A DNA stretch of 64,000 bases from Lentisphaeria bacterium (GTDB taxonomy: Bacteria; Verrucomicrobiota; Lentisphaeria; Victivallales; Victivallaceae). Position 1 is the stretch's first letter. Every line of letters starts with the position of its first letter. The position numbers were made by a program, and so were the translations under genes. Below the pieces are notes generated by a model, which was given only the letters and a program-made list of their open reading frames with translations, was not told the origin of the DNA and did not search any database. The stretch lies in assembly GCA_017508385.1 (NCBI GenBank), contig JAFVZB010000008.1:32848-96847 (forward strand). The letters are read 5' to 3'. Shown here one piece after another: positions 2,890-62,773 of the stretch.

Positions 2890-2922
2890 AGATAACCACA
2901 CAAAAAAAGGATAGGTTTTATT

Positions 2923-3285: not shown

Positions 3286-3305
3286 TACTGCATACAGTTT
3301 GATAC

Positions 3306-3345: not shown

Positions 3346-3367
3346 GTGATTTTTTTATGTGCTGATA

Positions 3368-4414: not shown

Positions 4415-4435
4415 GATTGTAAATCTTTACGTTTT

Positions 4436-5188: not shown

Positions 5189-5216
5189 TTTTTACTCCTG
5201 TGAATAAAATTAAAAG

Positions 5217-6590: not shown

Positions 6591-6710
6591 AATTTTCTCC
6601 ACAATATATTTTTTAAAGATGTTTATATACCGATTACATAAAATACCTCAAAAAAGCAGTTTTGTCAAGTGTTCCTTATTAAAAACAGCTTTGCGCGATA
6701 CTCTTGGTTA

Positions 6711-7637
6711 TTATTTTTCTGTTATTATTCTGAAGTGTGCAGACAGTACCGAGGCATCGCACTCTATTCCCATTTTGTCGGCTGAAGGATTGCCGGTCAT
6801 CTCGTGGGTGATCCCGAGATACATGGCACCATCCATGCCTTCGATTTTCACCTCTCCGTCACCGTCAACAGTCACAACTGCATGGACAGGTTCGGAAAAG
6901 AGCAGTTCATGGTTTGAAAGACGGAATTTTGCCATCAGTTCAGGCGGATAGGCATTGTGCGGATTATTCACCCAGTCCGAGGTGGTGCTGTTGAGGTCAA
7001 AGGCGGCAAGGTTGTTCAAAATGTTCAGGCTGTTGCGGTGGTAGTGACCGTTTATCCACAGCACCGGAACATTTGAGTGGGCAAAAATTATTTTTTGAGC
7101 ATCAGTTTTGTTAGTGATACCATTGCTTCTCCAAACCGAGGCGTGCGAAAAGATGACCGCCATTCCTGAGCAGGAATCAAGTTCACGAGCAAGAAAATCA
7201 AGCTGCTCAGGTGAGAGCAACTGCTCTTGCTGGTGACATTTTTCATAAACGCTTGCATTGGCGTAGTGGCACAGTTCACCAGATTCATTGTGGTAAAAGT
7301 TGGTATCAAGCGAGATGAATTTGTTGCCGTTGAGCTCAAAACTGTAAAAGCTCCTGCCATTCATGCGGTACGCTTCGCACACTTCGGAAATATCCTGACT
7401 CTCTTCAAAGTCGTGATTGCCCATGGTGTGATATGCCGGAATATGAAAGTTGTTGTACTGTTCAAGGATTTCCTTAGCGGCTCGCACATTATGGCAAAAG
7501 TCTCCGCAGTGCATGATAAATTGCGAACCGGATTTTTCTGCCCGTTCAAATACCGCAGCCAACCTTTTGTCGGCCCAGTTCCAGTTTCCCTCTCGATAGT
7601 GCAGGTCGGCAAATACGCTGAATTTTACTTTGCCCAT
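6711..7637 (-). CDS. metallophosphoesterase (calcineurin-like)
   Basis: Motifs FADLHY, GDFCHN, GNHDFE and GHYH. GGGAGAA RBS upstream. Overlaps the 3' end of the upstream kinase gene by 13 nt. Confidence 0.8.
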   Translation of the reverse strand: MGKVKFSVFADLHYREGNWNWADKRLAAVFERAEKSGSQFIMHCGDFCHNVRAAKEILEQYNNFHIPAYHTMGNHDFEESQDISEVCEAYRMNGRSFYSFELNGNKFISLDTNFYHNESGELCHYANASVYEKCHQQEQLLSPEQLDFLARELDSCSGMAVIFSHASVWRSNGITNKTDAQKIIFAHSNVPVLWINGHYHRNSLNILNNLAAFDLNSTTSDWVNNPHNAYPPELMAKFRLSNHELLFSEPVHAVVTVDGDGEVKIEGMDGAMYLGITHEMTGNPSADKMGIECDASVLSAHFRIITEK

Positions 7638-8578
7638 TGGATTTTCTCCCGGGATACAGTTATTGAAGATTCTATTTTGTCGGCATCAGCAGTGTTGAAG
7701 CTGCCGCAGAGATGAGAGAGGCAGTTCGCACTTGCCGCCGCCAGAGCTTTTTTGAATGCCGGCTCGAAATCAAGACCGTCTGCCAGTGCTCCTGAATATA
7801 CAGCACTTGCAGTGTCACCGCATCCGAGAGTGGAAACGATGTTGTCGAGTTTCGGTAACTGATACTTCACCAGCTTTTTGCCGTCCGAGGCAAAAGCCTG
7901 CTCAGGACCATCGGTTACGGCGGCACTCAAAATCGCAGGATAGGTTGAAAACAACCTGGCAAAAGCCTCTTCGACGCTTTCTTTTCCGGTCATCGAAAAA
8001 AGTTCTTCACGGTTTATTTTGAGGTGGATGCCGCATCCGGTGGTGAATACATCATCGACACCTTTACAGGCATCAAGGAGCAGGGGAACTGAGTTTTTTG
8101 CGGCGATCGAAGCAAATTCCCGATATACTTTTTTGTCGGTTTCACCGGGAAGAGTTCCGCAAACGGCGGCAAAACAGCACTCCGGCATGATTTTTTCTGC
8201 CATTTCAAGAAGATTTGCTGTTTCACTCTCTGATACGGTGTAGGAAGGCTCTATGCACTCGGTGGTCGAGTTGTCGCTTTCGTTAAGTATGGTGGTACAG
8301 CATCTTGTCGGAGTTGCGGTGAAACTCGTCAGGTGGCAGATGGCAAGTTTATCGAGCATATCGACCAGACGTTTACCGTTTTCTCCGCCTGCGAATTGCA
8401 GCAGACACGGTTCGGCAGAACCGTAAACGATGCTGGCACGGCAGAAGTTGACTCCTTTTCCGGAAGCGAATTCATCGAGCTGATACGCACGGTTGACTTT
8501 TCCGCAGGAAAATTTTTTGAAAGAGAGTGTTTTCTGCCATGCCGGATTGGCTCCGAGTACTGCGATTTTTCTGTTCAT
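7625..8578 (-). CDS. PfkB-family sugar(-phosphate) kinase (1-phosphofructokinase/tagatose-6-P kinase-like)
   Basis: 317-aa ORF with C-terminal GCGDTASAV PfkB signature. Its ATG overlaps the rnc stop codon by 1 nt (TAATG). Confidence 0.8.
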   Translation of the reverse strand: MNRKIAVLGANPAWQKTLSFKKFSCGKVNRAYQLDEFASGKGVNFCRASIVYGSAEPCLLQFAGGENGKRLVDMLDKLAICHLTSFTATPTRCCTTILNESDNSTTECIEPSYTVSESETANLLEMAEKIMPECCFAAVCGTLPGETDKKVYREFASIAAKNSVPLLLDACKGVDDVFTTGCGIHLKINREELFSMTGKESVEEAFARLFSTYPAILSAAVTDGPEQAFASDGKKLVKYQLPKLDNIVSTLGCGDTASAVYSGALADGLDFEPAFKKALAAASANCLSHLCGSFNTADADKIESSITVSREKIQWAK

Positions 8579-9270
8579 TATTCAACTCCGAGTGTGGAAG
8601 CAATGTAGTCTCTGAGCTTTTGAGCGGCTTTGCCCTCTGCCTCCCGTTTGCTCGAACCGTGTCCGGGAGCGACAAACTTGCCGGCAACAGCCTCAACATC
8701 GTAGCAGGGACAGTGCGGCGGACCCGATATGAGTATCACTTTGTATTGCGGAGTAAGTCCGAGATGTTTCTGGGTGAGCTCCTGAAGCTCTCCTTTGGGG
8801 TTGAACTGTTTGAATGACAATACCGGGTCGGGAATGTTTTCTTCAAGTATCTCGATGAGAAACTCGCAGGTTTTTTCATAGCCGCAAGCAATGTGGCAAG
8901 CTCCGAGCAGGGCTTCAAAGAGGTCGGCAAGCGTGGAGTTGCGTTTGTGTCCCTGCAATTCTCTTTCACCTTTTCCGGAAAGCAGTTTTCCGCCGAGTTT
9001 GAGATTTCTTGCCAGCATCGCCAGAGTTTCCTCGCGCACCATTGCGGCTCTGATTGCCGTAAGGTCGCCCTCTTTTGCTTTGGGATAACGGGTGAAAAGG
9101 TAGCTGCTGGTGACCAGCTCGAGAACTGCATCGCCGAGGAACTCCAGACGCTGATTGTCGTAATCGAGATGGTGTTCTGTGGCGTAACTGCGATGGGTGA
9201 ATGCAGCCGTCAGATACTTTTCACCGTTCGGATGCTTCAATATCTCATCTTTGATAGTTTTGAAATCCAT
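8578..9270 (-). CDS. rnc: ribonuclease III
   Basis: RNase III signature NQRLEFLGDAVLELV plus a C-terminal dsRBD-like region; 230 aa. Confidence 0.95.
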   Translation of the reverse strand: MDFKTIKDEILKHPNGEKYLTAAFTHRSYATEHHLDYDNQRLEFLGDAVLELVTSSYLFTRYPKAKEGDLTAIRAAMVREETLAMLARNLKLGGKLLSGKGERELQGHKRNSTLADLFEALLGACHIACGYEKTCEFLIEILEENIPDPVLSFKQFNPKGELQELTQKHLGLTPQYKVILISGPPHCPCYDVEAVAGKFVAPGHGSSKREAEGKAAQKLRDYIASTLGVE

Positions 9271-9293
9271 TATTACGGATACCTTTCTTTATT

Positions 9294-10076
9294 TTATCGC
9301 CGTGTGCTTTGCAGAAAGCGCAGCGTATCTTTTTCCAGCCGCACCGGGTCGATTTTGTGTTTGGAGTTTATATTCCGGTACAATCCGATAAAGCGGCTGC
9401 ACAAATTGCGTATGTTTTCAGGAGTTTCCTGTTCTCCTGAACAGATGATGAAGCTGCTGATAAATCTTGCGTTATCTTTTGAGAACAACTTTTTACGCAG
9501 AAAAAACGGAACTCTTCTGCAACCGTCAAGGTCGATGGTGCCGGTGAGATTTTCACTTCCGTTTCTGAACAGATAAAAGTTCCTCATGCTTGCGTCGCCG
9601 TGGACGATATCTGCCGAGTGGATATTTCCCAGCAGAGAGGTGATGCGTTGAAAAGCATTTTCCCACTCCCGGCTTGGCAATTTGTCGCAAAATGTGACGT
9701 TTTCATCAAGCACCGATGTCGCCAGATAGTCGCAGACTGGCAGCAGATATTTTGTCTCTCTCACGGCGCAGAATACCTGCGGAGTTGCTATGCCGAGCTG
9801 ATTGAGCTTCTCTGCCATTATCATTGAGCGTTTTGAACGGGGTGTTTGAAAAATCCGTCGCAGAGCCTTTGTTGACTTTCTTGCCGGAGAGCATTTTACA
9901 AAAACTCCGCCGCAGATATACGCCACGGTGGAAGAACCCTTTTTGCAAAGTTTTCCCGGAGGATCCATCCAGCTTCCGGAAAGATTGATTATTTGAGACT
10001 CTGAAAAATGTGAAAGGTCGCATTTTCCCCGTATGAGGGTGTTTTTGAGAGTTCTCAGTTTGATATCTTTCAACAT
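9294..10076 (-). CDS. lipopolysaccharide kinase (Kdo/WaaP)/protein-kinase-like fold protein
   Basis: Catalytic-loop-like IVHGDASMRNF and IDLDG motifs. First ATG at 10076; the ORF-track start at 10088 is TTG, so the start is uncertain. Confidence 0.6.
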   Translation of the reverse strand: MLKDIKLRTLKNTLIRGKCDLSHFSESQIINLSGSWMDPPGKLCKKGSSTVAYICGGVFVKCSPARKSTKALRRIFQTPRSKRSMIMAEKLNQLGIATPQVFCAVRETKYLLPVCDYLATSVLDENVTFCDKLPSREWENAFQRITSLLGNIHSADIVHGDASMRNFYLFRNGSENLTGTIDLDGCRRVPFFLRKKLFSKDNARFISSFIICSGEQETPENIRNLCSRFIGLYRNINSKHKIDPVRLEKDTLRFLQSTRR

Positions 10077-10192
10077 GTTTTTATACAACTCCGCTCTTCT
10101 GCCTTACTATATAAAATAACCCCCGAATGGAGTAAAGTCCAGTTGTAAAACAAAAAAAATCGTTTTGAAGTGAAAAATGGTGTGTTTCTTGC

Positions 10193-10221
10193 TTGAATTG
10201 TTGCATAAACCGTGTTATATT
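10193..10221 (+). promoter_or_regulatory. sigma70-like promoter TTGAAT-N17-TATATT upstream of the FHA gene
   Basis: -35 at 10193-10198 and -10 at 10216-10221, with exact 17-nt spacing. Lies in a divergent intergenic region. Confidence 0.35.
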
Positions 10222-10273
10222 TACCATTGAACTTTTGTGTAAAAATATAAATACGAAATACGGAGTGTGTATT

Positions 10274-10825
10274 ATGGCTGGACCGAAATTTACGGTTCTT
10301 TTCGAAAAGCTTCGCGGTACTACTTTTGATCTCAACAAAGAGACCATGAGCATCGGCCGCAGAGACGGTATGGATATCTGCATCAAAGACTCAAGCATGA
10401 GCGGACATCATGCCGATGTTATTTGCAGTGAACGTGACGGCAAAACAGTCTATATCCTGAGAGACAACGACAGCACCAACGGAACGAAAATCAACGGAGT
10501 TCAGGTGACCGAGCAGGAGCTCAAAAACTCTGACGTCATCCTGTTCGGCTCAGTAGAGGTTCTGTTTGACAGCGGCAGTGCCGATGCTGAGGGCGGTACC
10601 GGAGTGTTTGCTCCGACCAGCGTGACTCTCGACCTCTCATCTCTTGATGCCCACACCAACAGTGTGCCCAAGTTTGACAGTCTCAATCCGCTTGGCGACA
10701 GGGAAACCAAACGTCATACCATGGTCAGTGTCGGAATCATCGCACTTTGCGCCCTTGCCGGTCTCGGCGTGCTCGGACTCCTCGTCTATCTCGCCAAGGA
10801 GATTTTCGGTCTCGGCGGAAATTGA
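10274..10825 (+). CDS. FHA-domain protein with C-terminal transmembrane anchor
   Basis: FHA core motifs SIGRRDGMDICI...SMSGHHA...LRDNDSTNGTKINGV. C-terminal hydrophobic helix VGIIALCALAGLGVLGLLVYL. Start placed at ATG 10274 (MAGPKF). Confidence 0.85.
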   Translation: MAGPKFTVLFEKLRGTTFDLNKETMSIGRRDGMDICIKDSSMSGHHADVICSERDGKTVYILRDNDSTNGTKINGVQVTEQELKNSDVILFGSVEVLFDSGSADAEGGTGVFAPTSVTLDLSSLDAHTNSVPKFDSLNPLGDRETKRHTMVSVGIIALCALAGLGVLGLLVYLAKEIFGLGGN

Positions 10826-10852
10826 TACGGTTCAGATAACATTGAACACAGC

Positions 10853-10901
10853 AGATATCCGCTTTGACGGCGAATGCCGTTTTGCGGATTATCTCTTTTT
10901 T
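10853..10901 (+). terminator. rho-independent terminator/attenuator between the FHA gene and ftsH
   Basis: Long imperfect hairpin AGATATCCGC...GCGGATTATCT with inner ACGGC/GCCGT stem (10853-10894), followed by T-run 10896-10901. Confidence 0.55.
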
Positions 10902-36984: not shown

Positions 36985-39900
36985 TTATTCAAGGTCGCTC
37001 GCCCGGTTGCCGAGCCACGGATAGTCGAGTCCTTTGAGCTGCCACGATATCCATTTTGCGTTGACGATATACAGCTTCACGGTTTTTCCTCTGAATTCAG
37101 GTGGAATATCAAGTGTGAACGCTGTGCTGTTGAAATCACCCGCAAGCTCCTGTTCGGGAATGGTGTATGCTTTTGTTGTCAGCATCCTGCCGTCGCAGGT
37201 TTCAATGCCTGCCGCGAGGATCTCTCCGGCTGAAACATTGTTTTTTTGTTTCCAGTTCCAAAAAACCGAGAGTTTTCCTGATTGTGGAGCTTTTATGTAG
37301 ATGGCTGTCGGAGCTGAACTGGTGTTGCGTGCTCCGAATGTGCGCTTTGATGACAGTCGTATTTTACACGGACTCGATATGCTTCCCCACGAGTCGTTGT
37401 TGAAAATAATTTCCGCCCTCAGAGCCTTGCGGTCAGGAGAGGTTGCTTTTATCTGCCTGTGTTCCCAGGTCACGTTGCCGTCAAGGCAGATGCTTGTGAG
37501 CAGTTTACCTGTGGAGCTGAAAATTTTGCAGGTCACATAGTCATCTTTGAGTTTTTTGTTCCAGTAGCGGAACATTCTGAAACGGTACAAATCGAGAGTA
37601 CACACTCCGTCTTTATCGGGAGTTATCTCGAATATGAACGGCTCATAGTTGTTGAAGAGTCTCTGCACTCCGGCAAACATCGCCAGAAAATGGTACGCAT
37701 CCGGAGTGTTTTTGTGCTCGGGAATATTGTAGTGTTTCATGGCGTAAAGTCCGCCGAGTATCCAGGCGATGTTGGCTGAGCGGTAGGATCTCGGGTCGAG
37801 CATCCTGTTGAGCAGCGGAGAGTCGTTTTTGCCCCGGTTGAGGAACTCTATCAGCTCAGGTCGGTCGTAACGCAGTGCGGCACGGGCTCCGATAAGGATA
37901 CTCATTACTCCGCGTCCGGCATCGGCGTAACCTGTCCACGGAGGCATTACTGTACGGTCTTGAGGCATATCGGGGATATCGGTGCGGTTAGCTTTGGCAA
38001 AACGCTGTACCTCTTCGGTCATGCGGTCGAGATACTTTTTATCCTCAGTGACCTCGTAGAGTTTTTCGAGAGCCTCGTAAGCGATAGCTCCGTAATACGC
38101 TGAACCGTCTGATTTTCCGCCGTGATTGTACTGTCTATCCATGGCTTGTTTCACCAGTTTGTTGCCGGTGATGCCGTAGATTTCGGCGAGGTGGTAGAGC
38201 ATACGGTGACGCTCTCTGCCTCTGGGATATTTCAGTGACGATTTGGAAATCAATACTGCCATTGCGCTCACTGATGACTCATAACTTCTGCGGTCTCCTG
38301 TGAGCAGATAGTGCCAGACAAGTCCGGTCAGCCAGAAGTGTCCGGTGTGGAAACTGTAACTGTTGTTGTTGAAGCCGTTGTGGGTGTGCACGGCGGTGGT
38401 TCCGTAACGGATGTGCGCCTGGTCAAGGTCGCGCTGGTGTCTGGCGTGGACTTCCGCTATTTTGAAATCGTCAACGCATCCGGTCATCAGGAAACGCACC
38501 CAGAGATTGCGGACAATGGCGGTTTCGTGGTTGTCGAAGTACCCCCGTGAACCGAAGTCACCGTACTCCCAGAAGCCGTAATAGTTGTTGACTTTCGAGA
38601 AGCGTTTCATGTCTTCAAAGGTCGTGTCGATGATATGCTTGGATTTCGGGAAGTATTTTGCCATCTCCTTTTGTGTGAGGAACTCATCAAAAACTCCGCT
38701 CTGCCTGATGTGGTCGGGGTCGGGGTGGATGATAGCATTTGAACTCAGCGGAACCGATTTGCTCTCAGGAGCGTAGTTGAACTTCATCGTTCCTGATATT
38801 CCGGCAAATAAATCGGCAAAAGCCGCTCCCTCTTCCGGGTAGTGGTAGAGACGGATTTTTCCATCTTTGAATCCGATGGCGCGCGGAGCAAGTTCGGCAA
38901 AATCGGTTATGTGGAACGAGGCGTTTCCGCTTTTTCCGCTGCCCGAAAGGGTCAGGTTTTCGATGACCTCTTTTTTGCCGTTGCGCACGGCGTACACATC
39001 ACGTTTGAAGTAGCCTGTTCTGGTGTTTCGCTGAACGAAAATAGCGTTTCCGCTGCCTGAAAATGAGTCAACTTTGTAACTGCTGCCTCCGGGAAGCTCA
39101 ATAAAAATCGAGCGCACCTGACGGGTCATGGAGTCCCCGGCTGTAAAGTTGTTTTCAAATGAGTAATCGACCATCATGTACGGCTGGTCTTTGATGAATG
39201 TAAGGCGCAGCTCCCAGGCGAGCAGGGCAGTTCCGCGCAGGAAAATTGTTGCTCTCTGAGGTCCGTTTTCGTCAATGCGCACGATTTGGGCAGGGGAGCG
39301 GTTTATTTTGCCGTCAATGCTCTGCACCGCACAAAATGCGTCACTTCCTTTCAGGAACGATGCCGCTTTCGGAGTGAGCACCAGTTTGAGTTTTCCTGTG
39401 TCGATATGTATCTCATCACCCTTTTGCGCTGCAATGGCTGGAAATCCTGATTTGAACTCTTTTTTGCCGTACTCAAGAAAGAACTCTTTTCTTTCGTTGG
39501 CTTTGAGCTGAGTGTTGAAGTCAACCGCGACAGAGATCACGCTTTTATCGGTCGTGACTCTGCGGGCGAGGGCAGTGAACTGCGCCGGAACTTCTCTGCC
39601 GTTTTTGTCGGTGACTCTCAGACATCTGACATCGAAAAGAGCTCCTTTTGCAAAGGTGATGCCTCCGCGTACGGGAATGTTCTGGTAATCAACGTTATCC
39701 TGGTTTACCGCATGGAAACTTACCCTGCCTGTCGTGGGGTTTTCAGGCAATTTGTCAGGTTCGGCAAGCGGAGCAAGCGGGAAACAGTCTCCGACGGATG
39801 TGTTGAAGTCAGTGCTTCTCTGAGGCTTGAAATCTGTCGGTTTTGTGCTGTTTTGTTCAAGCTGCAAGGCATCGATGAAAAGCGGAGATTTTCCGGTATT

Positions 39901-41235
39901 GCGGATGGTTGCAATATACAACGACTGACCTGCCCGGGGCTTTTGTTTGAGCGGAGATATAAAGTGATATCTTTTCCAACTGTTGTCGGCTGTGAATGAT
40001 TTTTTCCAGATATTGAAAGCGACCGGTCCGTGGATTTTTCCGAGTTGCTGTCTAAAATCGAGCTCAAAATTACCGTTTCCTTTGGCGTAGAGCGAAAAAA
40101 TCGCAGTTCTGCCGACGTGGTCGCAGGTCTGGATGGTGATAAATCCACCGGGAGCGATTTCAAGACTGCGTTTGCCGTGGAATTTTTCAGCGGTTGAAAA
40201 TTTCAATCCCGAAGCGAGCTTTTCGCTGTGGTAATCGCCCCATGAAACAAAGTTTCCACGTGGAGTTGAAGCCTCTTCAAAACTGGGGTCGGGAATGAGA
40301 TTTTTAGCATTGTCCTCGAGGTCGATATCGATTATACGGCACTTTCTGATGCTTTGTTTTCCGTCGATAGTAAAGGAAAGTTCCTCGAATTTCACCAGAT
40401 CGTGGTAGTGGGCGAACTTCGAGAGCGGAATTTTTATTCTTCTTGCTCCATTTTTGCTGGCGGTGATATGGTCGAGCTCAACCGTTTTTTTAGTGCCGTA
40501 ACTGGTGATGTCAATGGTGACAGGTGTGGATGTTCCGAGCTCAAAAGCCATGGCTCCGAACTCAGGAGTCGAGCCGAGCAGTTCGTAAAATTTTCCGTTC
40601 TGACAGCGCAGGGTCAATGTTCCCTTGCCTTCAAGAATGAATGTGTCATTTTTTAAATTTGCTTTGAGTCCGTCTGAACACTTCCAGTTCCAGAAGAGCT
40701 TGTTTTTTCCGACACTGAGAAATGAGCCTGTGCCGCAGTTCCAAATCGGGCTTCCAGCTGCTCTGGTTTCAAGTTTGATGTTGCGGAAGAGAGCTTCTCC
40801 TGCTCTGTTCCAGCTTCTTGCCGCCTCTATCGAAGCGTAAAGTGTGAATGTGTTTTCCGGTATGTCAAGGGCACATTCGATCGACACCGGAGCGTGTTTG
40901 CCTCTGAACGGCAGTGAGCTCCTTTTCGAGAAACGTTTGCCGTCTCTGGTTTTTCCATAGAGCGAGAGACCCACCACATCAGGACGGTCGGAGTAGAGCT
41001 GTTCGACATCAGCTGATATCACCAGCTGTTTTCCGGCAAAGTTTTTGATTTCAGCTTTGGAAAACTTGCGCACGATCGCCGCAGTTTTCGGCTTTCTGGT
41101 CTTGCGTGCAAGGTAAAGAGTTCTATCTTTGTACTCAACTTTTTCCAGATTTTGAGCGTTCCACTGTTTGAGGTCGAAACTGCTCGCCTGGAATATGAGC
41201 AGCAAAAACGCTGTAAATGTAAAGAGAAATTTCAT
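36985..41235 (-). CDS. large secreted multi-domain protein: CBM-like jelly-roll modules plus a PcRGLX/YetA-like (PL26-like) region
   Basis: 1416 aa with signal peptide [22 protein letters not shown]4/9-like segment LIPDPSFEE...W...[18 protein letters not shown]...[13 protein letters not shown] resembles the PcRGLX N-terminal barrel, and [24 protein letters not shown] resembles its alpha/alpha-toroid region. Family call is from memory and unverified. Confidence 0.55.
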
Positions 41236-42188
41236 TTTTCACCTTCCCGTCTGCCCCAGAAAATACAGTCTTCTGCGGTGGCATAGGATTTGTATTTGTT
41301 ATAATATGGAATATCTGCTAGGGTATTGACGTTGAGTTTAGCTCCGGCGTGACCGTCAATAAAGACTATCTGGAGAGTTCCTGCATGGCGTTCAGCTCCT
41401 GCCAGTATCAGGGGATGATCTTCTTCTTTTTCGTTGCCGAGAACTGAGCACACTACTGTGTTGGTGGTCAGGGGAGAGAGGTCGGTGTCGAGAAACAGTA
41501 CGCTTCTTGATGGATAACGGATTTTTCTTACCTGCATTCCGCTCAGAAGCTCGTTGTAGCCGTAACTTGTTTCAACTGTTGCGGAGCTCGGAGCAACTAC
41601 TGCATCAGCCGGGCAGGCGAGTATCGGAGCATAATGTGTGCCATCAGGTCTTTTTATCCATTGAATGTATTTTTTGTTGGCAAGCAATCCTTCGAGCTGG
41701 TCAGGACGGTTCCACCATTTGAGGCTGGTCTGGGAACCTGTTTTGGTCGGTGCTCTGTGACGCATTAAAACGCCGTTGCTGTCATGGGTGTAATTTGCCA
41801 TGGCGAGTCCGATGGATTTCAGATTGTTCTGACATGCTGCTCCCTGAGCACGCAGTTTTGCACTTTGCAAGGCAGGCATGAGTATAGCCGCCAATATGGC
41901 GATAATCGCAATGACAACCAATAGTTCTATAAGGGTAAAGGAATACGCGGGAAGAGAGGGAAACTTCTTTTCACGAGAAAAGAAGTTTCCCTCTCTCCCC
42001 GCACCCCTCTCACCCTTCAAGAAAAGCGGAGTACTTTTTTGAAAACAATATAACGGTGAAACACATATTTGACAAGTTTTGCTCACAAGAAGTTCGATGA
42101 GGGTGAAACGGAATTCAAAGCGTGAGAGTTTCACCTGTTTCTTATTCATACCGGAGGCGTTTGATACGGAGCAGGGGGACTTTTTCAT
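41232..42188 (-). CDS. prepilin-type N-terminal domain / H-X9-DG family pseudopilin-like protein with duplicated leader
   Basis: [24 protein letters not shown] followed by a C-terminal [12 protein letters not shown] (H-X9-DG). An extra upstream in-frame FTLIELLV is present. AGGAAAAGG RBS before ATG 42188. The TGA overlaps the downstream ATG (ATGA). Confidence 0.75.
41947..42040 (+). repeat. palindromic repeat element, copy 1 (inside the pseudopilin coding frame, antisense orientation)
   Basis: Arms 41947-41972 and 41977-42002 give 26 pairing positions with one mismatch and a 4-nt loop. Tail GCACCCCTCTCACCCTTCAAGAAAAGCGGAGTACTTTTTT follows. Confidence 0.85.
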
Positions 42189-42218
42189 GGCACCTTTTCC
42201 TTTTTTTATTGTTGATGT

Positions 42219-43310
42219 TTACAAACTCTCTCTCTTAATGACTCCGACCGGCAGCAGTTCTGAAACTGACCGGCGCTTTTCAACGACATCCATAAGGATT
42301 TTCACTGCGTTGCGGCTGAGCAAATCGGAATCGATTTTTACCGTGGTCAGGGCTGGATTTGAGTAGGCTGAAAATCCGATTCCTCCAAATCCGGATACTG
42401 CAAAATCGTCTGGAACTCTGTAACCGAACCTGCGCAGGGAGCTTATCACTTTGATCGCAACGTAGTCATTGCAGCAGATGAAAGTTGCTCCATGATTTTC
42501 GGGAACAGCTATCTCTCTGAGTTGTTCGTGAATGAGCGGATGGTGGTCAAAATGGTTGAAATCCAGGTGGAAGAAGTTGTCGTATCTGATGTTTTTGCCG
42601 TAATCGACAATGGTGTATTGTATTCCGGCTTTTTTTGCCGCCCGCTCAAAACAAATTTTGCGCCAGCGGTGGGATGAGTTGTGTTCCTGGGTGATGAAGA
42701 ATACCGGAGCTTTTCTTTGAGCGGCAAGTTCGAGCAGCCGGCTGAATCCCATTTCGGCATCAGGAGCTGTGACTGGAATTGTTCCCTCTTCGGGATTTCC
42801 GTCAACTATAACTGCATTTTTGAAGAGTTCCTCAAGGAAACAGTAGTTGTTTTTCAGTGTCTGAAAGCCGGAATCAATGATAACTCCGTCATACTTCATG
42901 TTTTTGAAGAGCTCTTTTGCTTCGTCAGGCGTGTGAAACTCTTTGGAAAACACTGAAAAATCAAGATTGAACTCTCTGGTTTGAGCCTCGGCTCCGAAAA
43001 TAATATCGCTGTAATAGCTGTCGGTGACATCGTATTGCAGAATTCTTGTGTAGTGATTTATCAGGCAAAAACGGTTGTGGAGTATTCCGCTGCCGTCACT
43101 TTTGATGAAAGTTCCCTTGCCCGGATAAGTCTCAAGAATGTTATCCTCGACCATCAACCTTATCGCTTTGCGGACAGATGTGCGGGAAACTCCCAGCTTT
43201 TCGCAGAGCAGGTTTTCGGAATAAATCGCTTCGCCGACCTTCATTTTACCCTCAGAGATGCACTCCCTGAGAAATGCCGCCACCTGAAGATAAATTTTAT
43301 CCTTTGCCAT
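42219..43310 (-). CDS. transcriptional regulator, GntR-type HTH fused to a LacI/PBP-like sugar-binding domain
   Basis: HTH LLCEKLGVSRTSVRKAIRLMVEDNILETYPGKGTFI plus a PBP-like domain. Same architecture as 22553-23608. Confidence 0.8.
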   Translation of the reverse strand: MAKDKIYLQVAAFLRECISEGKMKVGEAIYSENLLCEKLGVSRTSVRKAIRLMVEDNILETYPGKGTFIKSDGSGILHNRFCLINHYTRILQYDVTDSYYSDIIFGAEAQTREFNLDFSVFSKEFHTPDEAKELFKNMKYDGVIIDSGFQTLKNNYCFLEELFKNAVIVDGNPEEGTIPVTAPDAEMGFSRLLELAAQRKAPVFFITQEHNSSHRWRKICFERAAKKAGIQYTIVDYGKNIRYDNFFHLDFNHFDHHPLIHEQLREIAVPENHGATFICCNDYVAIKVISSLRRFGYRVPDDFAVSGFGGIGFSAYSNPALTTVKIDSDLLSRNAVKILMDVVEKRRSVSELLPVGVIKRESL

Positions 43311-43313
43311 TTT

Positions 43314-43383
43314 TAACCTGTTTCTGTTAAAGGTTTATAATTGTGTTACAGGTTATTATATCACAAGTTTTTTATTAATACAA
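43314..43383 (-). promoter_or_regulatory. extended -10 promoter (TTGTAT-N17-TGATATAAT) with downstream inverted repeat TAACCTGT-N26-ACAGGTTA
   Basis: On the minus strand, -35 at 43383-43378 and -10 at 43360-43355, preceded by TGA. Inverted repeat arms at 43314-43321 and 43348-43355, between the -10 and ATG 43310. Confidence 0.4.
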
Positions 43384-43500
43384 GTGGCAGTAAAAAATTT
43401 TTTCAAAAAAATTGTTGCAGTTCCAAAAAGGCAGAGGTATAAAAAACAGCTCATCCCGAAAAAAAAGCGTAAAAAAGTCCGGCTCAGAAACACAAGCGTA

Positions 43501-43600
43501 AAAAAAGTACTCCGCTTTTCTTGAAAAGGGAAGGGGGGTGCAGGGGGGAAGGGGAAAACTTCTTTTCCCGTCGAAAAGAAGTTTTCCCCTTCCCCCCTGC
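43501..43600 (-). repeat. palindromic repeat element, copy 2 (inverted relative to copies 1 and 3)
   Basis: Perfect 27-28 bp arms 43540-43567 and 43573-43600 with 5-nt loop. The conserved tail is present as its reverse complement at 43501-43539. Lies directly downstream of the hydG-like stop codon. Confidence 0.85.
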
Positions 43601-43619
43601 GTCATCACATTGCCTATTA

Positions 43620-45044
43620 TCAAAACCTGAAGTCGCGTTCGCCGGTGGAGATTTTTTTGATGAACTCTTTGGCGGTTTTACGGGCGGTTTCGTTGGGGAT
43701 TTTTTCGAGTTCGCGCTCGATGACTTTGAGGCCTTTGGCTTTGGTATCGTCTGAGGCGTAGTCTTCGAGGTACTCTTTGAGGGTGATGATGGCGTTGGGG
43801 TGGCAGCAGTTGCTGATTTGTCCGGATTTAGCGAGGGACATGAAGCGGTCACCTGTTCTGCCCTCACGGTAGCAGGCGGTGCAGAAGCTCGGGATATATC
43901 CGAGTTCGAGCAGCCAGTTTACTACCTGGTCGAGGGTACGGCGGTCGCTCAGCTCGAACTGGGCTGAGTTATCCTCTTCTTCCTCCTCTTCGGCGTAGCC
44001 TCCGACGCTGGTGCGTGAGCCTCCGCTGATTTGGGAAACTCCGAGTTCGAGGACACGTTTGCGAGCCTCTTTGCTCTCACGGGTGGAGACGATGAGTCCG
44101 GTGTAGGGAACGGCTATTCTCAGCACTGCCACGATTTTGGCGAAGGTGTCGTCGTCGATGCCGTTGCTGAAAGCGTTGGGGTCGATGTCATCGGCTTTGC
44201 GGATGCGGGGAACGCTCATGGTGTGCGGACCTACTCCTTTAGCCGCCTCGAGGTGTTCAGCGTGCATGAGCATGCCGACAAAATCATAGCGGTAGAGATT
44301 GAGTCCGAAGAGGACACCGCAGCCGACGTCGTCGATACCGCCATCCATGGCTCTATCCATCGCCTCGGTGTGCCAGGCGTAGTCGTGTTTCGGACCTGCG
44401 GGGTGGAGCTCTTCGTAGGTCTTGCGGTGGTAGGTTTCCTGAAAGAGGATATAAGTACCTATTCCGGCATCCTTGAGTTTGCGGTAGTTTTCGACCGTGG
44501 TGGCGGCGATGTTGACGTTGACACGGCGGATGGCTCCGTTTTTATGCTTGATGCTGTAAATGGTTTTGATGCTTTCGAGCACATATTCGATGGGATTGTT
44601 CACCGGGTCTTCTCCGGTCTCGAGGGCGAGGCGTTTGTGACCCATATCCTGCAGGGCGATGACCTCTTTAACGATATCCTCCTGAGAGAGCTTCACCCGG
44701 CGGATGTTTTTGTTTTTGATGTGATATGGGCAGTAAACGCAGCTGTTCACGCTGTAGTTCGACAGATACAGCGGAGCGAACATCACGATGCGGCTGCCGT
44801 AAATGCGCTCTTTGATTTGCTTTGCCAGAGCGAAAATCTTTTCGTTCTGTTCGGGAAGGTCGCAGTCGAGCAGAACGGCGGCTTCACGGTGGGATAATCC
44901 CTTGCAGAGAGCCGCCTTTTCTATAAGTTGGTCGATGAGTTCACGGTTTGAACGGTTGGCTTTGGCGTACTCGAGAGTCGCCAGGATTTCTCCGTCGTTG
45001 ATAAATTCGTCTGCGATGTTTGACATCACATCATAGCGGTACAT
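43620..45044 (-). CDS. hydG: HydG-like radical SAM protein ([FeFe]-hydrogenase maturase / tyrosine lyase family) with atypical cluster motif
   Basis: 474 aa. PLYLSNYSVNSCVYCPYH aligns with the recalled HydG consensus PLYLSNYCVNGCVYCPYH. C-terminal CTACYREGRTGDRFM...NCCHPNA (CX2CX22C). First radical-SAM Cys is Ser. Confidence 0.75.
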   Translation of the reverse strand: MYRYDVMSNIADEFINDGEILATLEYAKANRSNRELIDQLIEKAALCKGLSHREAAVLLDCDLPEQNEKIFALAKQIKERIYGSRIVMFAPLYLSNYSVNSCVYCPYHIKNKNIRRVKLSQEDIVKEVIALQDMGHKRLALETGEDPVNNPIEYVLESIKTIYSIKHKNGAIRRVNVNIAATTVENYRKLKDAGIGTYILFQETYHRKTYEELHPAGPKHDYAWHTEAMDRAMDGGIDDVGCGVLFGLNLYRYDFVGMLMHAEHLEAAKGVGPHTMSVPRIRKADDIDPNAFSNGIDDDTFAKIVAVLRIAVPYTGLIVSTRESKEARKRVLELGVSQISGGSRTSVGGYAEEEEEEDNSAQFELSDRRTLDQVVNWLLELGYIPSFCTACYREGRTGDRFMSLAKSGQISNCCHPNAIITLKEYLEDYASDDTKAKGLKVIERELEKIPNETARKTAKEFIKKISTGERDFRF

Positions 45045-54843: not shown

Positions 54844-55722
54844 ATGGCAGGAAAAAATCCGGCAAACGGGTACGATCACGGAGGCTCTCTGCTCTTTCCG
54901 CTGCGTGGAGTTCATCTTCACTCGATGGTCAAAGGGGCAGGGCGTCAGCGAACTTGCGACCACTCCTATAACTGGGATGGCACCAAGCGGGGAAACCGTG
55001 ATCTCGTGCTCTGGCAGTACACGATTTCAGGTATGGGCGCAGTCGATTACGCATCACGCACCATGTATCTCGAGCCGGGTAAGGCGTTCCTGCTGGTCGT
55101 GCCCGAAAAGCACCGCTACTATCTGCCGGAAAACTCCGACCACTGGGAGTTTTTATACCTCTCGCTCAACGGTACTGAAATCGTCAGGCTCGCATGGGAG
55201 CTCCGCCGTATGTCAGGTGCCGTCTCAAGCCGCTACTGTTCTGAAAAGAGCGTGGCTGTCGCCAACAGGATAATTGACGGAGTCATCAACAAAACGCTCT
55301 CTCCGCATCAGGCAAGTGCGGTGGCTTACGAATTTATGATGACACTGCTTTCTGAGAGTGAAGCAGCTCCGTCGGGAGTCGATGTCGATCTGCACCAGAT
55401 CATGCACGACTACTGTCTCGAAAACATCGAGCGTCATCCCGATATCGACGAGCTTGCGGAGGTCGCAGGGTACAGCAGAGGTCACTTTTACCGCAAGTTC
55501 AAGGAAAAAACCGGAGCCAATCCGCACGAGTTTATCCTCGACCTTAAAATGCGTTTCGCCATGCGCAAACTGCAGAACGAATACAATATCTCGGTCAAAG
55601 AGGTCGCAGCCGCCTGCGGTTTCGAGGACCCGAGCTATTTTTGCAAAGTTTTCAAGAAATTTTTCGGAGTAACTCCCGCCTGCTTCAGAGGGGAAAAACG
55701 AAAGAAGGAGTCTGTTTTATGA
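54844..55722 (+). CDS. AraC family transcriptional regulator
   Basis: C-terminal double HTH (DELAEVAGYSRGHFYRKFKEKTG...VAAACGFEDPSYFCKVFKKFFG). Divergent from the GH4 gene. Confidence 0.85.
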   Translation: MAGKNPANGYDHGGSLLFPLRGVHLHSMVKGAGRQRTCDHSYNWDGTKRGNRDLVLWQYTISGMGAVDYASRTMYLEPGKAFLLVVPEKHRYYLPENSDHWEFLYLSLNGTEIVRLAWELRRMSGAVSSRYCSEKSVAVANRIIDGVINKTLSPHQASAVAYEFMMTLLSESEAAPSGVDVDLHQIMHDYCLENIERHPDIDELAEVAGYSRGHFYRKFKEKTGANPHEFILDLKMRFAMRKLQNEYNISVKEVAAACGFEDPSYFCKVFKKFFGVTPACFRGEKRKKESVL

Positions 55723-56822
55723 TAATAAACAAATTTTACACCGACGGCGGATGTGCTGAACTTTTTATATCCTCAGAGTCTGAACGCCGTGAGAGTTTCC
55801 GTGATGAGGTGGTCACGACTTTGTGCGAGCTTCAGACCGCCATTCCCTCGAACTTCAAGCTGGTCTGGGTGCGTTTCCATGTGAGCGACATCGCCAATCA
55901 GTACGCCGAAATCGAGAGTGCGACCCGTGAACTGCCTGCCATGATATCCGTGGTCGGACAGGCTCCCCTGAGCGGAGCGCACATTGCTGTTGAGGCTTAT
56001 GCCATTGATGCCGACTGCACCATCGAGTGCAACGACAACAGCGTGTGCAAGATAGATTTTGAAAATTACAGCCAGCTCTTCTTCAATCTGAAAGAGGTGA
56101 AGTCAGGCGACAGTTTCGGTCAGATGAATGAGGAGTTTGAACTTGCTGAAAAACTCATCTCATCTTTTTCAGGTACCATCGAAAACAATCTCCAGCGCAC
56201 CTGGATATACTGCCGGGATATCGACAACAACTATGCCGGATTGGTCAAAGCCCGCCGTGAGCTCTTTGAAAAGCTGGGCATGGTCGCCGATACCCACTAT
56301 ATTTCAAGCACCGGGATCGAGGGGCAGTCACATCCGCACAACCGTCTGGTGAGGATGGATTCCTTTGCTCTCTTCGGTCACGAAAGAGAACAGATAGCAT
56401 ACCTGCACGCCCTTGAAAATCTCTCTCCCACCCACGTTTACGGAGTCACTTTCGAGCGGGGAACCCGTATCATTTACGGAGACCGCAGCCACTATTATAT
56501 TTCCGGCACAGCCAGCATTGACAAAGATGGCAACGTGATGCACCTCTGCAATGTCGAAAAACAGACCGAAAGACTGCTCGACAATGTCGAAGCACTCCTT
56601 GCCGAAGGCGGAGGAACTCTTGCCGACCTCAGGCAGGCGGTGGTTTATCTGCGTGACCCTGCTGACAGAGCACTGGTCGAAAAAGTGATGAGCAAGAGAG
56701 TTCCTGCCGATACCGCACGGGTGATGGTGCGGGGCTCGATCTGCCGCCCGACCTGGCTGGTCGAGATGGATGCCATCGCCGTAAACAACAAAGGCAACAG
56801 CAAATTCAAGCCGCTTTGTTGA
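55719..56822 (+). CDS. RidA/YjgF-fold protein, FkbO/Hyg5/XanB2 chorismatase-like
   Basis: LQRTWIYCRDIDNNYAGLVKARRELF and ISGTASIDKDGNVMH...EKQTERLLDNVEALL resemble chorismatase-family motifs. ATG 55719 overlaps the AraC TGA (ATGA). AAGGAG RBS at 55705-55710. Confidence 0.5.
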   Translation: MIINKFYTDGGCAELFISSESERRESFRDEVVTTLCELQTAIPSNFKLVWVRFHVSDIANQYAEIESATRELPAMISVVGQAPLSGAHIAVEAYAIDADCTIECNDNSVCKIDFENYSQLFFNLKEVKSGDSFGQMNEEFELAEKLISSFSGTIENNLQRTWIYCRDIDNNYAGLVKARRELFEKLGMVADTHYISSTGIEGQSHPHNRLVRMDSFALFGHEREQIAYLHALENLSPTHVYGVTFERGTRIIYGDRSHYYISGTASIDKDGNVMHLCNVEKQTERLLDNVEALLAEGGGTLADLRQAVVYLRDPADRALVEKVMSKRVPADTARVMVRGSICRPTWLVEMDAIAVNNKGNSKFKPLC

Positions 56823-56861
56823 AAATTTTGTTCCTGATATGGGAAGATGATGCGGGGAGAG

Positions 56862-56957
56862 AGGGAAAACTTCTTTTCCCGGGAAAAGAAGTTTTCCCTC
56901 TCTCCCCGCGCCCCTCTCTCCCTTTCAAGAAAAGCGGGAAACCTTTTTACCCTTGTA
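56862..56957 (+). repeat. palindromic repeat element, copy 3
   Basis: 58-nt perfect palindrome 56862-56919 (29-bp arms, no loop) followed by tail GCGCCCCTCTCTCCCTTTCAAGAAAAGCGGGAAACCTTTTT. Confidence 0.9.
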
Positions 56958-58927: not shown

Positions 58928-58977
58928 AGGTATGCCGTATTCCCTTGTATCGGGGAACGCAGGCATACCTTTTTTTG
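58928..58977 (+). terminator. intrinsic terminator-like hairpin plus T-run, 18 nt upstream of the pseudopilin ATG
   Basis: 9-bp stem AGGTATGCC/GGCATACCT (58928-58936 with 58962-58970), inner TTCCC/GGGAA pairing, and T7 run at 58971-58977. Confidence 0.6.
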
Positions 58978-58995
58978 TGTGCAGAAAGATTAAAA

Positions 58996-59748
58996 ATGTC
59001 AGGAAAATCCAAAAATAGAAAACAATTTTTCACTCTCATTGAATTGCTGGTCGTAATAGCAATCATCGCTGTTCTTGCAGGAATCCTGATGCCCGCTCTG
59101 GCAAGTGCGAGGGCGAGGAGCAGGGCGGTCAAGTGTCAGAGCAACATGAGTCAGCTGGCGATGGTGTTCAACTATTACGGAGATGACAGCGGTGGATATT
59201 TGCCCTGTCTCGACAACATCGGAGGAGCTGGAGCAATCAATTCAAAGGGAGAAACCGTCGATGCCAAGAGCTGGCTGAACGATACGGTGAAGCGGTATCT
59301 GGGCAAGGTCGATGCGTCAAAAGAGCCGGTTGAACTTCTGCGTTGTCCTGATGAGGAGTCTCTGGTTGACATCACGACCAACTACGGTTTGAACTACCTT
59401 GTTGCCACCCGTGGAGTCGGACAGGGCATCAAGCGTGAGACCCATCTGCGTCCGGGAGCGACGGCGATGATCGTGGAAAATTCAGGACACCTCTGTTACT
59501 ATCCGGGAGTGACCAATCCGGGAAATCTGCACAACACCGGCAGCAGTTACGGCAAAAACCGTGCGGCGTATTTCCGTCATGCGGAGCGTGCGGTCACAGC
59601 TTTTATTGACGGACACGTTGAGCTGAGAGAGAAAATGAGCGTTCCGTGTCTCGAAAGTTTCCCCGACGCCACGGCGCAGATGGTGGAAAACACCGTGTTC
59701 AACAAGGGCAAAGCCGATGGTTCTCAGCCGGGAATTTCCGGAATGTGA
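58996..59748 (+). CDS. prepilin-type N-terminal domain / H-X9-DG family pseudopilin-like protein
   Basis: [35 protein letters not shown] and C-terminal HAERAVTAFIDG (H-X9-DG). Start placed at ATG 58996. Confidence 0.85.
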   Translation: MSGKSKNRKQFFTLIELLVVIAIIAVLAGILMPALASARARSRAVKCQSNMSQLAMVFNYYGDDSGGYLPCLDNIGGAGAINSKGETVDAKSWLNDTVKRYLGKVDASKEPVELLRCPDEESLVDITTNYGLNYLVATRGVGQGIKRETHLRPGATAMIVENSGHLCYYPGVTNPGNLHNTGSSYGKNRAAYFRHAERAVTAFIDGHVELREKMSVPCLESFPDATAQMVENTVFNKGKADGSQPGISGM

Positions 59749-61653: not shown

Positions 61654-61750
61654 GTCTTTTACTGAGGATTTATCGGAGGAAACAGGGCGTGCAACGTACA
61701 AGATGTTATGCTCAGGCAAGTAATGTCGACTCCGGCAAAAAAACGAAAAC

Positions 61751-62083
61751 AAAAACGTCAGTCAGGAAACATACCGTCATTGCCGGTACCTCACCAACGA
61801 AACGCAATCTCAGGTATGGAAGGCTTTATTTCATTACGAAAAATCCCGGTAACAAAAACGTCGGTTAGGAAACATACCGTCATTGCCGGTACCCAACCAA
61901 CGAAACGCAATCGCTGGTATGGAATGGTATGCGCCACATTCCGCCCCGAATTTATTTCATTACGAAAAAATCCCGGTAACAAAAACGTCGGTTAGGAAAC
62001 ATACCGTCATTGCCGGTACCCCACCAACGAAACGCAATCTCTGGTATGGAATGGTATGCGCCAATTACCATTCGCACCGCCCC
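61751..62083. repeat. tandem direct repeat, three units (103, 127 and a truncated roughly 100 bp unit)
   Basis: Units start at 61751, 61854 and 61981 with AAAAACGTC(A/G)GT(C/T)AGGAAACATACCGTCATTGCCGGTACC.... Units 2 and 3 differ at 2 of the first 83 positions. Unit 1 lacks a roughly 25-nt segment. Confidence 0.9.
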
Positions 62084-62104
62084 AACGGGGGCGGTGCGTT
62101 ATCC

Positions 62105-62164
62105 AAAAAAAGGTGGGGCGGGAACCGCTTGCCTCAAGGGAACAAAGGCAAGGGCTCCCGCCCC
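62105..62164 (-). terminator. rho-independent terminator of the ECF sigma operon
   Basis: Long GC-rich imperfect hairpin GGGGCGGGAACCGCTTGCC / GGCAAGGGCTCCCGCCCC (62115-62164), followed on the minus strand by a T7 run (plus-strand A-run 62105-62111). Confidence 0.65.
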
Positions 62165-62200
62165 GGGGAAATAAGCGGATTTCTCCGCTTGCAAGGGGGC

Positions 62201-62773
62201 TTATTTTGGTGGCGGAGTGGCAAAGCGGCGGTGCGGTCTCTTTCCGTAGTTCGGACGTTTTCCGGATATTATGTTGTTTACTACGGTATCGACGATTTTT
62301 TCCTCGGCTTTCTCTCTGCGGTCAAGCTCTTTTTCGAGTTTTTCAGCTCTTTTTTGGAGTTCATCAAGCTGCATTCTGCTCTGGCGCAGGCGGCGTTTGA
62401 AGTTCTCACGCACCATAGTCTTTATCTTTTCGAGCAGTTGCGGCTTCTCTTTTTCTCCGGCAGTTTTGTACTTTTCGACGAGAGCGGCAAGCTCCAAGCG
62501 GCGGAGCTTTTCGGCTTTGAAGAACTCCTCACCGAGCTTGTGCATCTCGGTGCGGAACTTTTCCGGGTCCTCACGCTGGAGTTTCAGCATAGCCTGACGC
62601 TCTTCAGGAGAAAGTTCGGCGAAAGCCATCCACATTCCGTGACCTTTGCGGAAGTTGTTGCGCTTCTGTCGGTGCGGATGAGGTGCGTGACGCTCGGGGG
62701 GCGGAGCTGCTTTTTCGGCAAAAACTCCGATGGCTGTTGTGGTCAAAAGGGCAAGTATCAGTAATTTTTTCAT
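62201..62773 (-). CDS. periplasmic coiled-coil protein (charged, His/Pro-rich N-region), function unknown
   Basis: Signal peptide MKKLLILALLTTTAIGVFA, then HAPHPH and long Lys/Glu-rich helices. Start placed at ATG 62773 (GGAG RBS), 1 nt after the upstream stop. Confidence 0.65.
   Translation of the reverse strand: MKKLLILALLTTTAIGVFAEKAAPPPERHAPHPHRQKRNNFRKGHGMWMAFAELSPEERQAMLKLQREDPEKFRTEMHKLGEEFFKAEKLRRLELAALVEKYKTAGEKEKPQLLEKIKTMVRENFKRRLRQSRMQLDELQKRAEKLEKELDRREKAEEKIVDTVVNNIISGKRPNYGKRPHRRFATPPPK

Follow-up and report, generated by a model that had tools for sequence, protein, structure and literature searches.

The 5' end of a pseudopilin-like gene of a Lentisphaeria bacterium holds what is probably a small mobile cassette. 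The gene is encoded in a stretch of 64,000 nucleotides (nt) from contig JAFVZB010000008.1 of assembly GCA_017508385.1 (positions 32,848 to 96,847 of the forward strand), and this whole stretch is referred to here as the window. In this open reading frame (ORF), of the H-X9-DG pseudopilin type, the prepilin leader motif FTLIELLV is encoded twice, and the second leader is carried by a unit of 168 nt which is best read as a non-autonomous mobile element that targets the leader, preserves the gene in which it resides, and is probably integrated in a site-specific manner by an enzyme supplied in trans. This reading is considered likely, although several observations, discussed below, weigh against it.

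Two leaders in one pseudopilin gene

The two 24-nt segments encoding FTLIELLV (Table 1) differ at 7 of 24 nt, all seven differences being synonymous. They are separated by a spacer of 144 nt (48 codons), which contains no stop codon in the frame of the gene and 1 and 2 stops in the other sense frames. The spacer contains a palindrome, and no start codon (ATG, GTG or TTG) is found between this palindrome and leader 2; an in-frame TTG (in the peptide FLKG) is present inside the palindrome, at 42020-42018. The sequence features reported in a preliminary description of the same DNA were all reproduced.

The cassette extends from 42084 through 41917, starting directly after the GT of leader 1's Val-8 codon, with the third base of that codon. 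It consists of this third base, a 43-nt 'SKTCQICV' box, a 95-nt palindrome similar to repetitive extragenic palindromic (REP) elements, a 6-nt linker and 23 nt of leader. The general form of the unit can be written as R + left box + variable middle with a hairpin + 23 nt of leader. A strong hairpin is located near the right end of the cassette, and inspection of the left box revealed no hairpin consistent across cassette types. The predicted RNA fold of the unit has a free energy of -77.3 kcal/mol (z = -8.8).

A prepilin-type N-terminal methylation motif followed by a hydrophobic helix is recognized in the host protein by PF07963 (N_methyl; 26.5 bits, cut-off 21.2) and by TIGR02532 (24.1 bits, cut-off 16.3), in both cases at residues 84-104, which correspond to leader 2 and the hydrophobic helix, and neither model matches at leader 1. 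According to these sequence matches, the N-terminal helix of the pilin functionally begins at leader 2. The C-terminal H-x9-DG motif can be read directly in the translation; no H-X9-DG model matched in an NCBIfam scan of the protein, the assignment to this type being one by motif only.

Independent origin of the two leaders

Comparison with related genes indicates that leader 1 is native while leader 2 was imported on the cassette, so that the two are not sister copies. An orthologue with an empty site (P0013, in L069/L070) has a body 77% identical to that of the host gene, the same regulator upstream and the same 1416-amino-acid (aa) gene downstream. In it, a similar ribosome-binding site and ATG precede an uninterrupted leader-helix, and its N-terminal context matches that of leader 1 in the window. 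The reciprocal comparison is provided by L009, a non-orthologous pilin gene of another genome which holds the same cassette type between unrelated flanks. Identity between the window and L009 is 46% upstream of leader 1 and 83% in leader 1, rises to 95.1% in the 144 nt of the cassette and to 23 of 24 nt in leader 2, and falls again to 67% in the next 60 nt and to 52% in the body. The suggestion in the preliminary description that a second leader had been recombined in from elsewhere is thus upheld as regards its import, with the modification that this leader travels on the cassette itself.

The seven purely synonymous differences are explained by separate histories of the two leaders, both of which were constrained to encode one and the same peptide. 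Neutral decay of a duplicate, already dismissed in the preliminary description, cannot account for them, and the same description was right in arguing against a recent target-site duplication, given the cassette-borne nature of leader 2 and the absence of duplicated target bases in the L021/L023 pair described below.

Closer relatives differ in their cassettes. L067 is 97.7% identical to the window in the body and 98.7% in the downstream gene, compared with 78.5% in the cassette plus leader 2; its cassette is A-like but diverged, its leader 1 has decayed to NNLIECPV, and another gene lies upstream. L068 holds a cassette from a family different from the type A of the window. Leader 2 differs among the window, L067 and L068, and their identity of 95-98% starts exactly at Val-9. 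These comparisons indicate that cassettes turn over faster than the host gene.

The preliminary description also considered selection on both leaders. Amino-acid changes are present in leader 1 in 11 of 57 copies (E5K, F1I/N and TPL among them) and in leader 2 in 1 of 40 (a V-to-I change), a difference with a Fisher p value of 0.013, and lasting selection on leader 1 is therefore not supported by these sequences.

A family of cassettes at a single junction

A census of the left box was carried out by scanning one genome per species with its 20-nt core (AAAACTTGTCAAATATGTGT). This core returned 63 loci and was exact in 55, all of them in metagenome-assembled genomes (MAGs) of Lentisphaeria/Victivallaceae, while the other 8 belong to other phyla and have no leader context. 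One MAG contains about 30 copies and another about 17. The ~50 nt that had been described as unique sequence are unique within the window only, and correspond to this conserved box. In the Lentisphaeria, the left box lies directly 3' of a leader motif in 57 of 57 copies, and every copy that does not run off the end of its contig or locus is followed by a second leader and then by VIAIIAILA. An element that targets leader-coding DNA, one of the possibilities raised in the preliminary description, is supported by this single fixed junction.

Protein searches yielded the same picture. A search with the spacer retrieved Lentisphaeria proteins with different native N-termini and the same segment after FTLIELLV, and a full HMMER scan with a 64-aa leader-cassette-leader query against 1.84 billion cluster representatives matched 104 representatives, 63 of them full-length (at least 250 aa). 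In most of the 30 N-termini inspected from these matches, the leader-cassette-leader arrangement is located at the start of the protein. On the basis of these sequences, in-frame, stop-free leader cassettes recur in dozens of pilin-like genes of Lentisphaeria gut bacteria, so that the similar architecture that was to be sought in paralogues and relatives does exist, with the box between the leaders in many loci.

The limits of the unit are best defined in type B, a 210-nt cassette of which 21 copies were aligned. The frequency of the major allele is 0.42 upstream, 0.83 in leader 1 (where third positions vary as in native genes), 0.97 in the insert and 0.94 in leader 2, whose third positions are fixed and linked to insert subfamilies; the helix-coding DNA downstream is conserved at the amino-acid level only. 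The Val-8 codon is also informative. Where a cassette comes next it reads GTR (53 of 56 leaders), and where VIAII comes next it reads GTY (44 of 51 leaders). This partition of the third base with the sequence that follows places the insertion of the unit between the GT and the third base.

Several unrelated left ends are found at this same junction, among them SAACKV, TVAQQN, NTSISS, KRPHLC (87 nt), STVISS and VTSQLC. Unit lengths range from 87 to 234 nt, the minimal form is the palindrome alone, and cassettes are mosaics that draw on interchangeable left ends, hairpins and right ends. In intact ORFs, as many as four consecutive leaders can precede a full H-x9-DG body, as in L027.

No box copy with a long insert before the next leader, as would be expected of an autonomous partner, was found, and the copies that lack leader 2 are all at contig or locus ends. 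The box had 0 matches in IMG/VR, and the 192-nt segment comprising leader 1, cassette and leader 2 had none among PLSDB plasmids or INPHARED phages; 7 matches were obtained in JGI metagenome contigs, none with leader context. Literature searches on the motif, on Lentisphaerae pseudopilins and on Victivallis prepilins found nothing relevant to the motif or to the phenomenon. P0012 was considered as a further empty site and rejected, because at the DNA level its contig starts inside a different cassette.

Conservation of the frame and not of the peptide

Although the search imposed no frame, the length of the insert is a multiple of three in 38 of 38 cases (single units of 144, 147, 171, 174, 177, 186, 198 and 210 nt), and the VIAIIA helix is in the frame of the box in 40 of 40 copies. 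Each length class has no stops in the leader frame, and most classes have between 1 and 5 in most of the other frames. The indels observed within cassettes, of 3, 24, 30 and 39 nt, all maintain the frame. The encoded peptide behaves differently. Variable sites in type B are spread evenly over the codon positions (16/16/14), and synonymous and non-synonymous changes stand at 13:37, against a neutral expectation of 0.22:0.74. Cassette peptides thus look neutral in their evolution, the frame being constrained and the peptide not.

Translation of the cassette as part of the host ORF is inferred from this pattern, and with the frame conserved with respect to the native upstream ATG, this codon is the probable site of initiation. 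An element-encoded start at the in-frame TTG, as had been suggested, finds no support. The simplest reading of these sequences would be that the host gene is under selection, that it can only be translated from its native ATG through the cassette, and that only the last leader matters.

Other explanations for an open insert were discarded. Translational bypass or hopping is unnecessary, as there is no stop after leader 1 and the frame is open throughout; inteins and introns are excluded, the unit being much too small for either and lacking their features. An internal promoter was rejected as the main function, since the TTGTCA-N17-TATATT spacing is not kept in types B to D and no start codon is found between the match and leader 2. 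A scan for promoter-like patterns gave 4 sites compared with 2.7 in shuffles, and the match in the box is probably fortuitous.

Gain, loss and exchange between relatives

The most direct view of a gained or lost unit comes from the orthologous loci L021 and L023, whose flanks are about 99% identical, and in which L021 has exactly one extra unit of 234 nt. The empty site of L023 reads TTGGTT/GTTATT (slashes mark junctions), and the filled site of L021 reads TTGGTG-AGCAAAAC...CTTCTGGTT-GTTATT; no target-site duplication is present in this pair, the insertion falling after the GT of the Val codon and before its third base. Between L079 and L080 the difference is a 153-nt unit from another cassette family, and other orthologous pairs show an in-frame 39-nt deletion within the cassette or swapped upstream regions.

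In the pairs L035/L059, L028/L056 and window/L067, pilin bodies that are 96-99% identical are associated with different N-termini, promoters or upstream genes. One example of upstream gene exchange involves a GntR regulator and a GFO_IDH_MocA oxidoreductase, with the break at the leader or cassette. The position of these breaks suggests that cassettes mark rearrangement breakpoints at which pilin operons are paired again with new upstream regions.

A larger rearrangement was observed in L071 (positions 1-10866; ENA ERZ27317654, k141_697880), where a cassette-bearing pilin ORF (594-866) is cut off and followed by a gene for a 503-aa protein with a Phage_integrase domain, an HTH_17 gene, a second integrase-like gene, and genes for a TraG/TrwB coupling protein and a CbiA/ParA-like protein. 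Its gene content suggests an integrative conjugative element that entered the pilin gene within the helix-coding 5' part, and the conserved pilin 5' end may also be an attachment site for large elements.

Proposed mechanism and alternatives

According to these data, it is proposed that the cassette inserts between the second and third bases of the Val-8 codon of a native FTLIELLV. The product would comprise, in this order, the native N-terminus, the native leader, the cassette, the cassette-borne leader, and the native hydrophobic helix and body. Repetition of the process at the same junction in the expanded H-X9-DG pseudopilin genes would have generated a large mosaic family, the members of which are stacked, gained, lost and swapped among relatives. 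Survival of the gene would require readthrough from the native ATG; with no start in the cassette before leader 2, this need would explain why every copy is a multiple of three, free of stops and in frame. The prepilin peptidase would most likely cut before leader 2, because this is the sole leader followed by a real transmembrane helix, and would thereby remove the extension, leaving the mature protein unchanged and the insertion silent. Integration is most likely site-specific, either through a recombinase for which the leader would be the attachment site or through an HUH-type enzyme that would cut 3' of the motif, as in 21 of 21 type-B copies neither boundary varies despite the adjoining ~50 nt of conserved helix-coding DNA. 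The mobilizing enzyme would be supplied in trans.

Several observations weigh against this proposal. No transposase, recombinase or integrase was detected among the 48 window ORFs scanned, which also lack a Y1 HUH transposase (RAYT/TnpA), and none has been tied to the cassettes. Terminal inverted repeats are absent, since the match between the left 40 nt and the reverse complement of the right 40 nt equals that of shuffles in 8 length classes, and together with the lack of target duplication this means that no known transposition chemistry is demonstrated. Processing raises a further difficulty. Classical prepilin peptidase substrates obey a Gly(-1) rule. In the window, leader 1 has Arg at -1 of FTLIELLV and leader 2 has Ser, and more generally Gly occupies this position in 3 of 57 native leaders and in 0 of 40 cassette-borne ones, 29 of which have Pro; with Gly so rare, classical prepilin peptidase cleavage is assumed. 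A perfect 30-bp stem in a coding region could also impede translation or attract RNase III. Cleavage by this enzyme has been reported for some hairpin repeats in other bacteria, and by analogy it is plausible that the stem in the pilin mRNA is an RNase III substrate. Finally, leader 1 of the L079/L080 pair has a foreign 3' half, and leader 2 a 3' half of native appearance. The point of exchange may thus be mid-leader in that family and not at the 3' end of the leader, which would fit a homology-guided process equally well.

Such a process, without any dedicated machinery, would have spread the units among hundreds of paralogous pilin 5' ends by ectopic recombination, gene conversion or template switching, using the ~24-nt leader and the conserved helix-coding DNA as homology arms. 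Leader and VIAIIAILA-coding DNA are common to all the paralogues, the parts of the cassettes are interchangeable, upstream regions have been swapped on the orthologous bodies of the three pairs mentioned above, and both the mid-leader exchange point in L079/L080 and the lack of a transposase among the scanned ORFs point in the same direction. Nevertheless, crossovers would be expected mostly within the 50 nt of helix-coding DNA adjoining the unit, where the boundary never falls, whereas in 21 of 21 type-B copies it coincides with the last base of leader 2, and the left boundary is fixed too, at the third base of Val-8. In addition, homology on the left is limited to 24 nt at ~75-85% identity, and RecA-dependent exchange normally needs perfect identity over far more than 24 nt. 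Recombination of this kind is for these reasons regarded as unlikely, though not negligible.

An even less probable explanation is that the cassettes are modules adapted to serve the host, either as 5' regulatory units, in which the hairpin would act as a translational or RNase III throttle and promoters and N-termini would be exchanged among polysaccharide-utilization-like operons, or as parts of poly-leader precursors cut at several sites. Cassettes are found in the first gene of operon-like units beside GntR/LacI-type regulators, upstream regions are exchanged at the cassette among close relatives, the stem has a high predicted stability and the window contains an RNase III gene, and arrays are kept translatable, all of which would speak for such a function. 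Against it stand the peptides that evolve neutrally, with their 13:37 ratio and even spread over codon positions, and the existence of cassette-free orthologues, and the decay of upstream leaders, including E5 and F1, argues against multiple cleavage sites. As to a doubled leader formed in place by tandem or target-site duplication, an assembly artefact, or 5' junk of a pseudogene, these are hardly credible. It is true that direct repeats of the same 8 codons flank a repeat element, that such repeats often confuse assemblies, and that many of the surveyed contigs end inside a cassette. However, leader 2 and not leader 1 is nearly identical (23/24) to the cassette leader of L009, the L021/L023 comparison shows no duplicated target bases, and the ORF runs unbroken through an H-x9-DG body and has orthologues with 49-100% aa identity. 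An artefact, the possibility against which the preliminary description had asked for a check, is excluded by the presence of an identical protein, P0010, in an independent NCBI Lentisphaeria MAG and by the recurrence of the architecture in dozens of other assemblies. Insertion of a leader-targeting mobile cassette is therefore preferred to all of these alternatives.

Host gene and genomic context

The host ORF is the first of an operon-like pair. It overlaps by 4 nt the next gene (36985..41235), which encodes a 1416-aa protein with a PcRGLX-like domain according to the domain scan and is kept downstream of the orthologues of the host ORF. In the domain scan of window ORFs, the gene that precedes it encodes a GntR/LacI-type regulator. 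A second H-X9-DG pseudopilin-like gene has a single leader and no cassette, and offers a comparison with an uninterrupted gene of the same window. Matches to the degenerate leader pattern number 3 in the window, compared with 0 expected from shuffles. The coordinates of all these features are collected in Table 1.

Table 1. Features of the host gene, the leader cassette and related sequences in the window
Feature	Coordinates	Strand	Remarks
H-X9-DG-type pseudopilin-like host ORF with N-terminal extension	41232..42188	-	318 aa
Native ribosome-binding region (AAAGGAAAAGG) and ATG (42188-42186)	42186..42203	-	Aligns with the ribosome-binding site and ATG of the uninterrupted orthologue L069/L070
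Leader 1, native FTLIELLV; third base of the Val-8 codon (42084) from the cassette	42084..42107	-	Context matches the empty-site orthologue P0013
Left box (AGCAAAACTTGTCAAATATGTGTTTCACCGTTATATTGTTTTC), common to cassette types A to D; sigma-70-like match at 42075..42047	42041..42083	-	
REP-like palindrome nested in the cassette; near-perfect ~30-bp stem, core 41958-41991	41946..42040	-	
6-nt linker TATTCC ('YS') from palindrome to leader 2	41940..41945	-	
Leader 2, cassette-borne FTLIELLV (first 23 nt); last base (41916) native	41916..41939	-	
Native mature pseudopilin body to stop codon	41232..41915	-	97.7% nt identity to L067, 95.4% to L068
Intergenic palindrome copy 2	43500..43603	+	3' of the radical-SAM/BATS gene 43620..45044 (-)
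Intergenic palindrome copy 3	56848..56950	-	3' of the L-PSP-domain gene 55641..56822 (+)
Second H-X9-DG pseudopilin-like gene, single leader at 59029-59052, no cassette	58945..59748	+	

The palindrome is also found outside pilin genes. Both intergenic copies have an orientation relative to their upstream gene opposite to that of the copy embedded in the pilin gene. No T-tract terminator was called in a scan of 41200-43400, a span that excludes both intergenic copies. Rfam had no match on the whole window at gathering thresholds, and a permissive Rfam scan of 41800-42300 returned only generic long-hairpin (miRNA precursor) matches far below threshold.

The window is otherwise ordinary chromosome, with genes for FtsH, RF, ProRS, UvrB, MnmG, RNase III and sugar enzymes. 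The RNase III gene, which encodes Ribonuclease_3 and dsrm domains, is located at 8578..9270 on the minus strand. At 61736-62063, on the 5' side of the ORF 61883..62764, there is a tandem array of three direct repeats that measure about 100-127 nt and are 81-98% identical; this ORF has no Pfam match, and the repeats have no Rfam match at the gathering threshold.

Implications

If the proposed mechanism is correct, these cassettes show selfish DNA residing within genes in a novel manner, in which the part of the protein that is discarded is targeted, the processing motif is supplied again and the insert remains translatable. The discarded leader peptide would then be a safe harbour, and cassette exchange could shuffle promoters and N-termini among polysaccharide-utilization-like operons. 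The precision of the insertion site (GT/N of the Val-8 codon) makes the hunt for the responsible enzyme tractable, and the model predicts an excised or circular form in which leader 2 would be joined to the left box (...GAACTTCTTGT-R-AGCAAAACTTGTC). Leaders that rarely have Gly(-1), and that can exceed 150 residues, raise the question of what the prepilin peptidase recognizes. The cassette site is also a hypervariable hotspot between gut Lentisphaeria strains that are otherwise 96-99% identical, so that it could be used as a strain marker, and it may rewire the expression of pseudopilin-led operons.

There are consequences for annotation too, as gene callers and MAG assemblers are inconsistent at cassette loci. 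P0010, for instance, was called by PGAP from an internal ATG. Many of the stretches L005, L006, L018-L020, L025, L033, L036 and L038 stop 40-230 nt past the box, inside the cassette, as do many of L044-L046, L048, L055, L064 and L066, and a number of these stops are contig ends. Where this is so, the repeats would be fragmenting the assembly, and the partial proteins P0002-P0006 and P0028-P0046 would be truncated pilin N-termini.

Comparison with known systems

[quoted passage not shown] The cassettes are likewise small, non-coding and multi-copy, without a transposase of their own; nonetheless, classification as MITEs was rejected, as the terminal inverted repeats and target-site duplications that were tested for are absent.

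A second resemblance is to REP/REPIN-RAYT systems and elements derived from IS200/IS605. The palindrome is also free-standing downstream of genes, as REPs are, and insertion takes place 3' of a defined sequence (...CTN-GT/N), in one orientation, with neither duplication nor terminal inverted repeats, as in the IS200/IS605 type. Hairpins near both ends, with guide pairing to the cleavage sites, are features of those systems, and in the cassettes a strong hairpin is seen near the right end. Moreover, known members of the IS200/IS605 family recognize 4-5 nt, whereas residence at a 24-nt motif in 57 of 57 copies would need a much longer recognition.

The arrays recall those of integron cassettes, with units in the same orientation, ends that resemble recombination sites, addition one at a time and interchangeable content. 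Unlike integron cassettes, leader cassettes lie inside an ORF and carry no gene. No integron integrase, attI or Pc adjoins the cassette within the 64-kb window, and the junctions, read directly as GT/R-AGC... and GT/Y-GTN-ATT, do not contain the GTTRRRY core of attC-type sites at the cassette boundaries.

Integrative elements that target tRNA or other conserved genes share with the cassettes the supply of a new copy of the target, by which the gene stays functional while the displaced copy decays. Such elements extend over kilobases and include an integrase gene of their own; the cassette of the window is 168 nt long, functionally non-coding, and restores the 5' leader of a protein gene.

The nearest analogue is provided by the Rickettsia palindromic elements (RPEs), small palindromic repeats located in frame within protein-coding genes and translated with them (PMC10969869). 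Both RPEs and leader cassettes are short (~100-150 nt), palindromic, multi-copy, non-autonomous, in frame within ORFs and tolerated by the host. RPEs, however, enter many unrelated genes at varied positions and have a conserved encoded peptide, while the cassettes occupy one codon of one motif in one paralogous family, bring a replacement copy of this motif, form arrays and show no peptide constraint. It is a substantial possibility, though less likely than not, that they represent an undescribed class of site-specific cassettes moved by a recombinase or an HUH-type enzyme, with a protein-coding prepilin leader as attachment site, a replacement copy of the motif, and integron-like arrays built inside ORFs.

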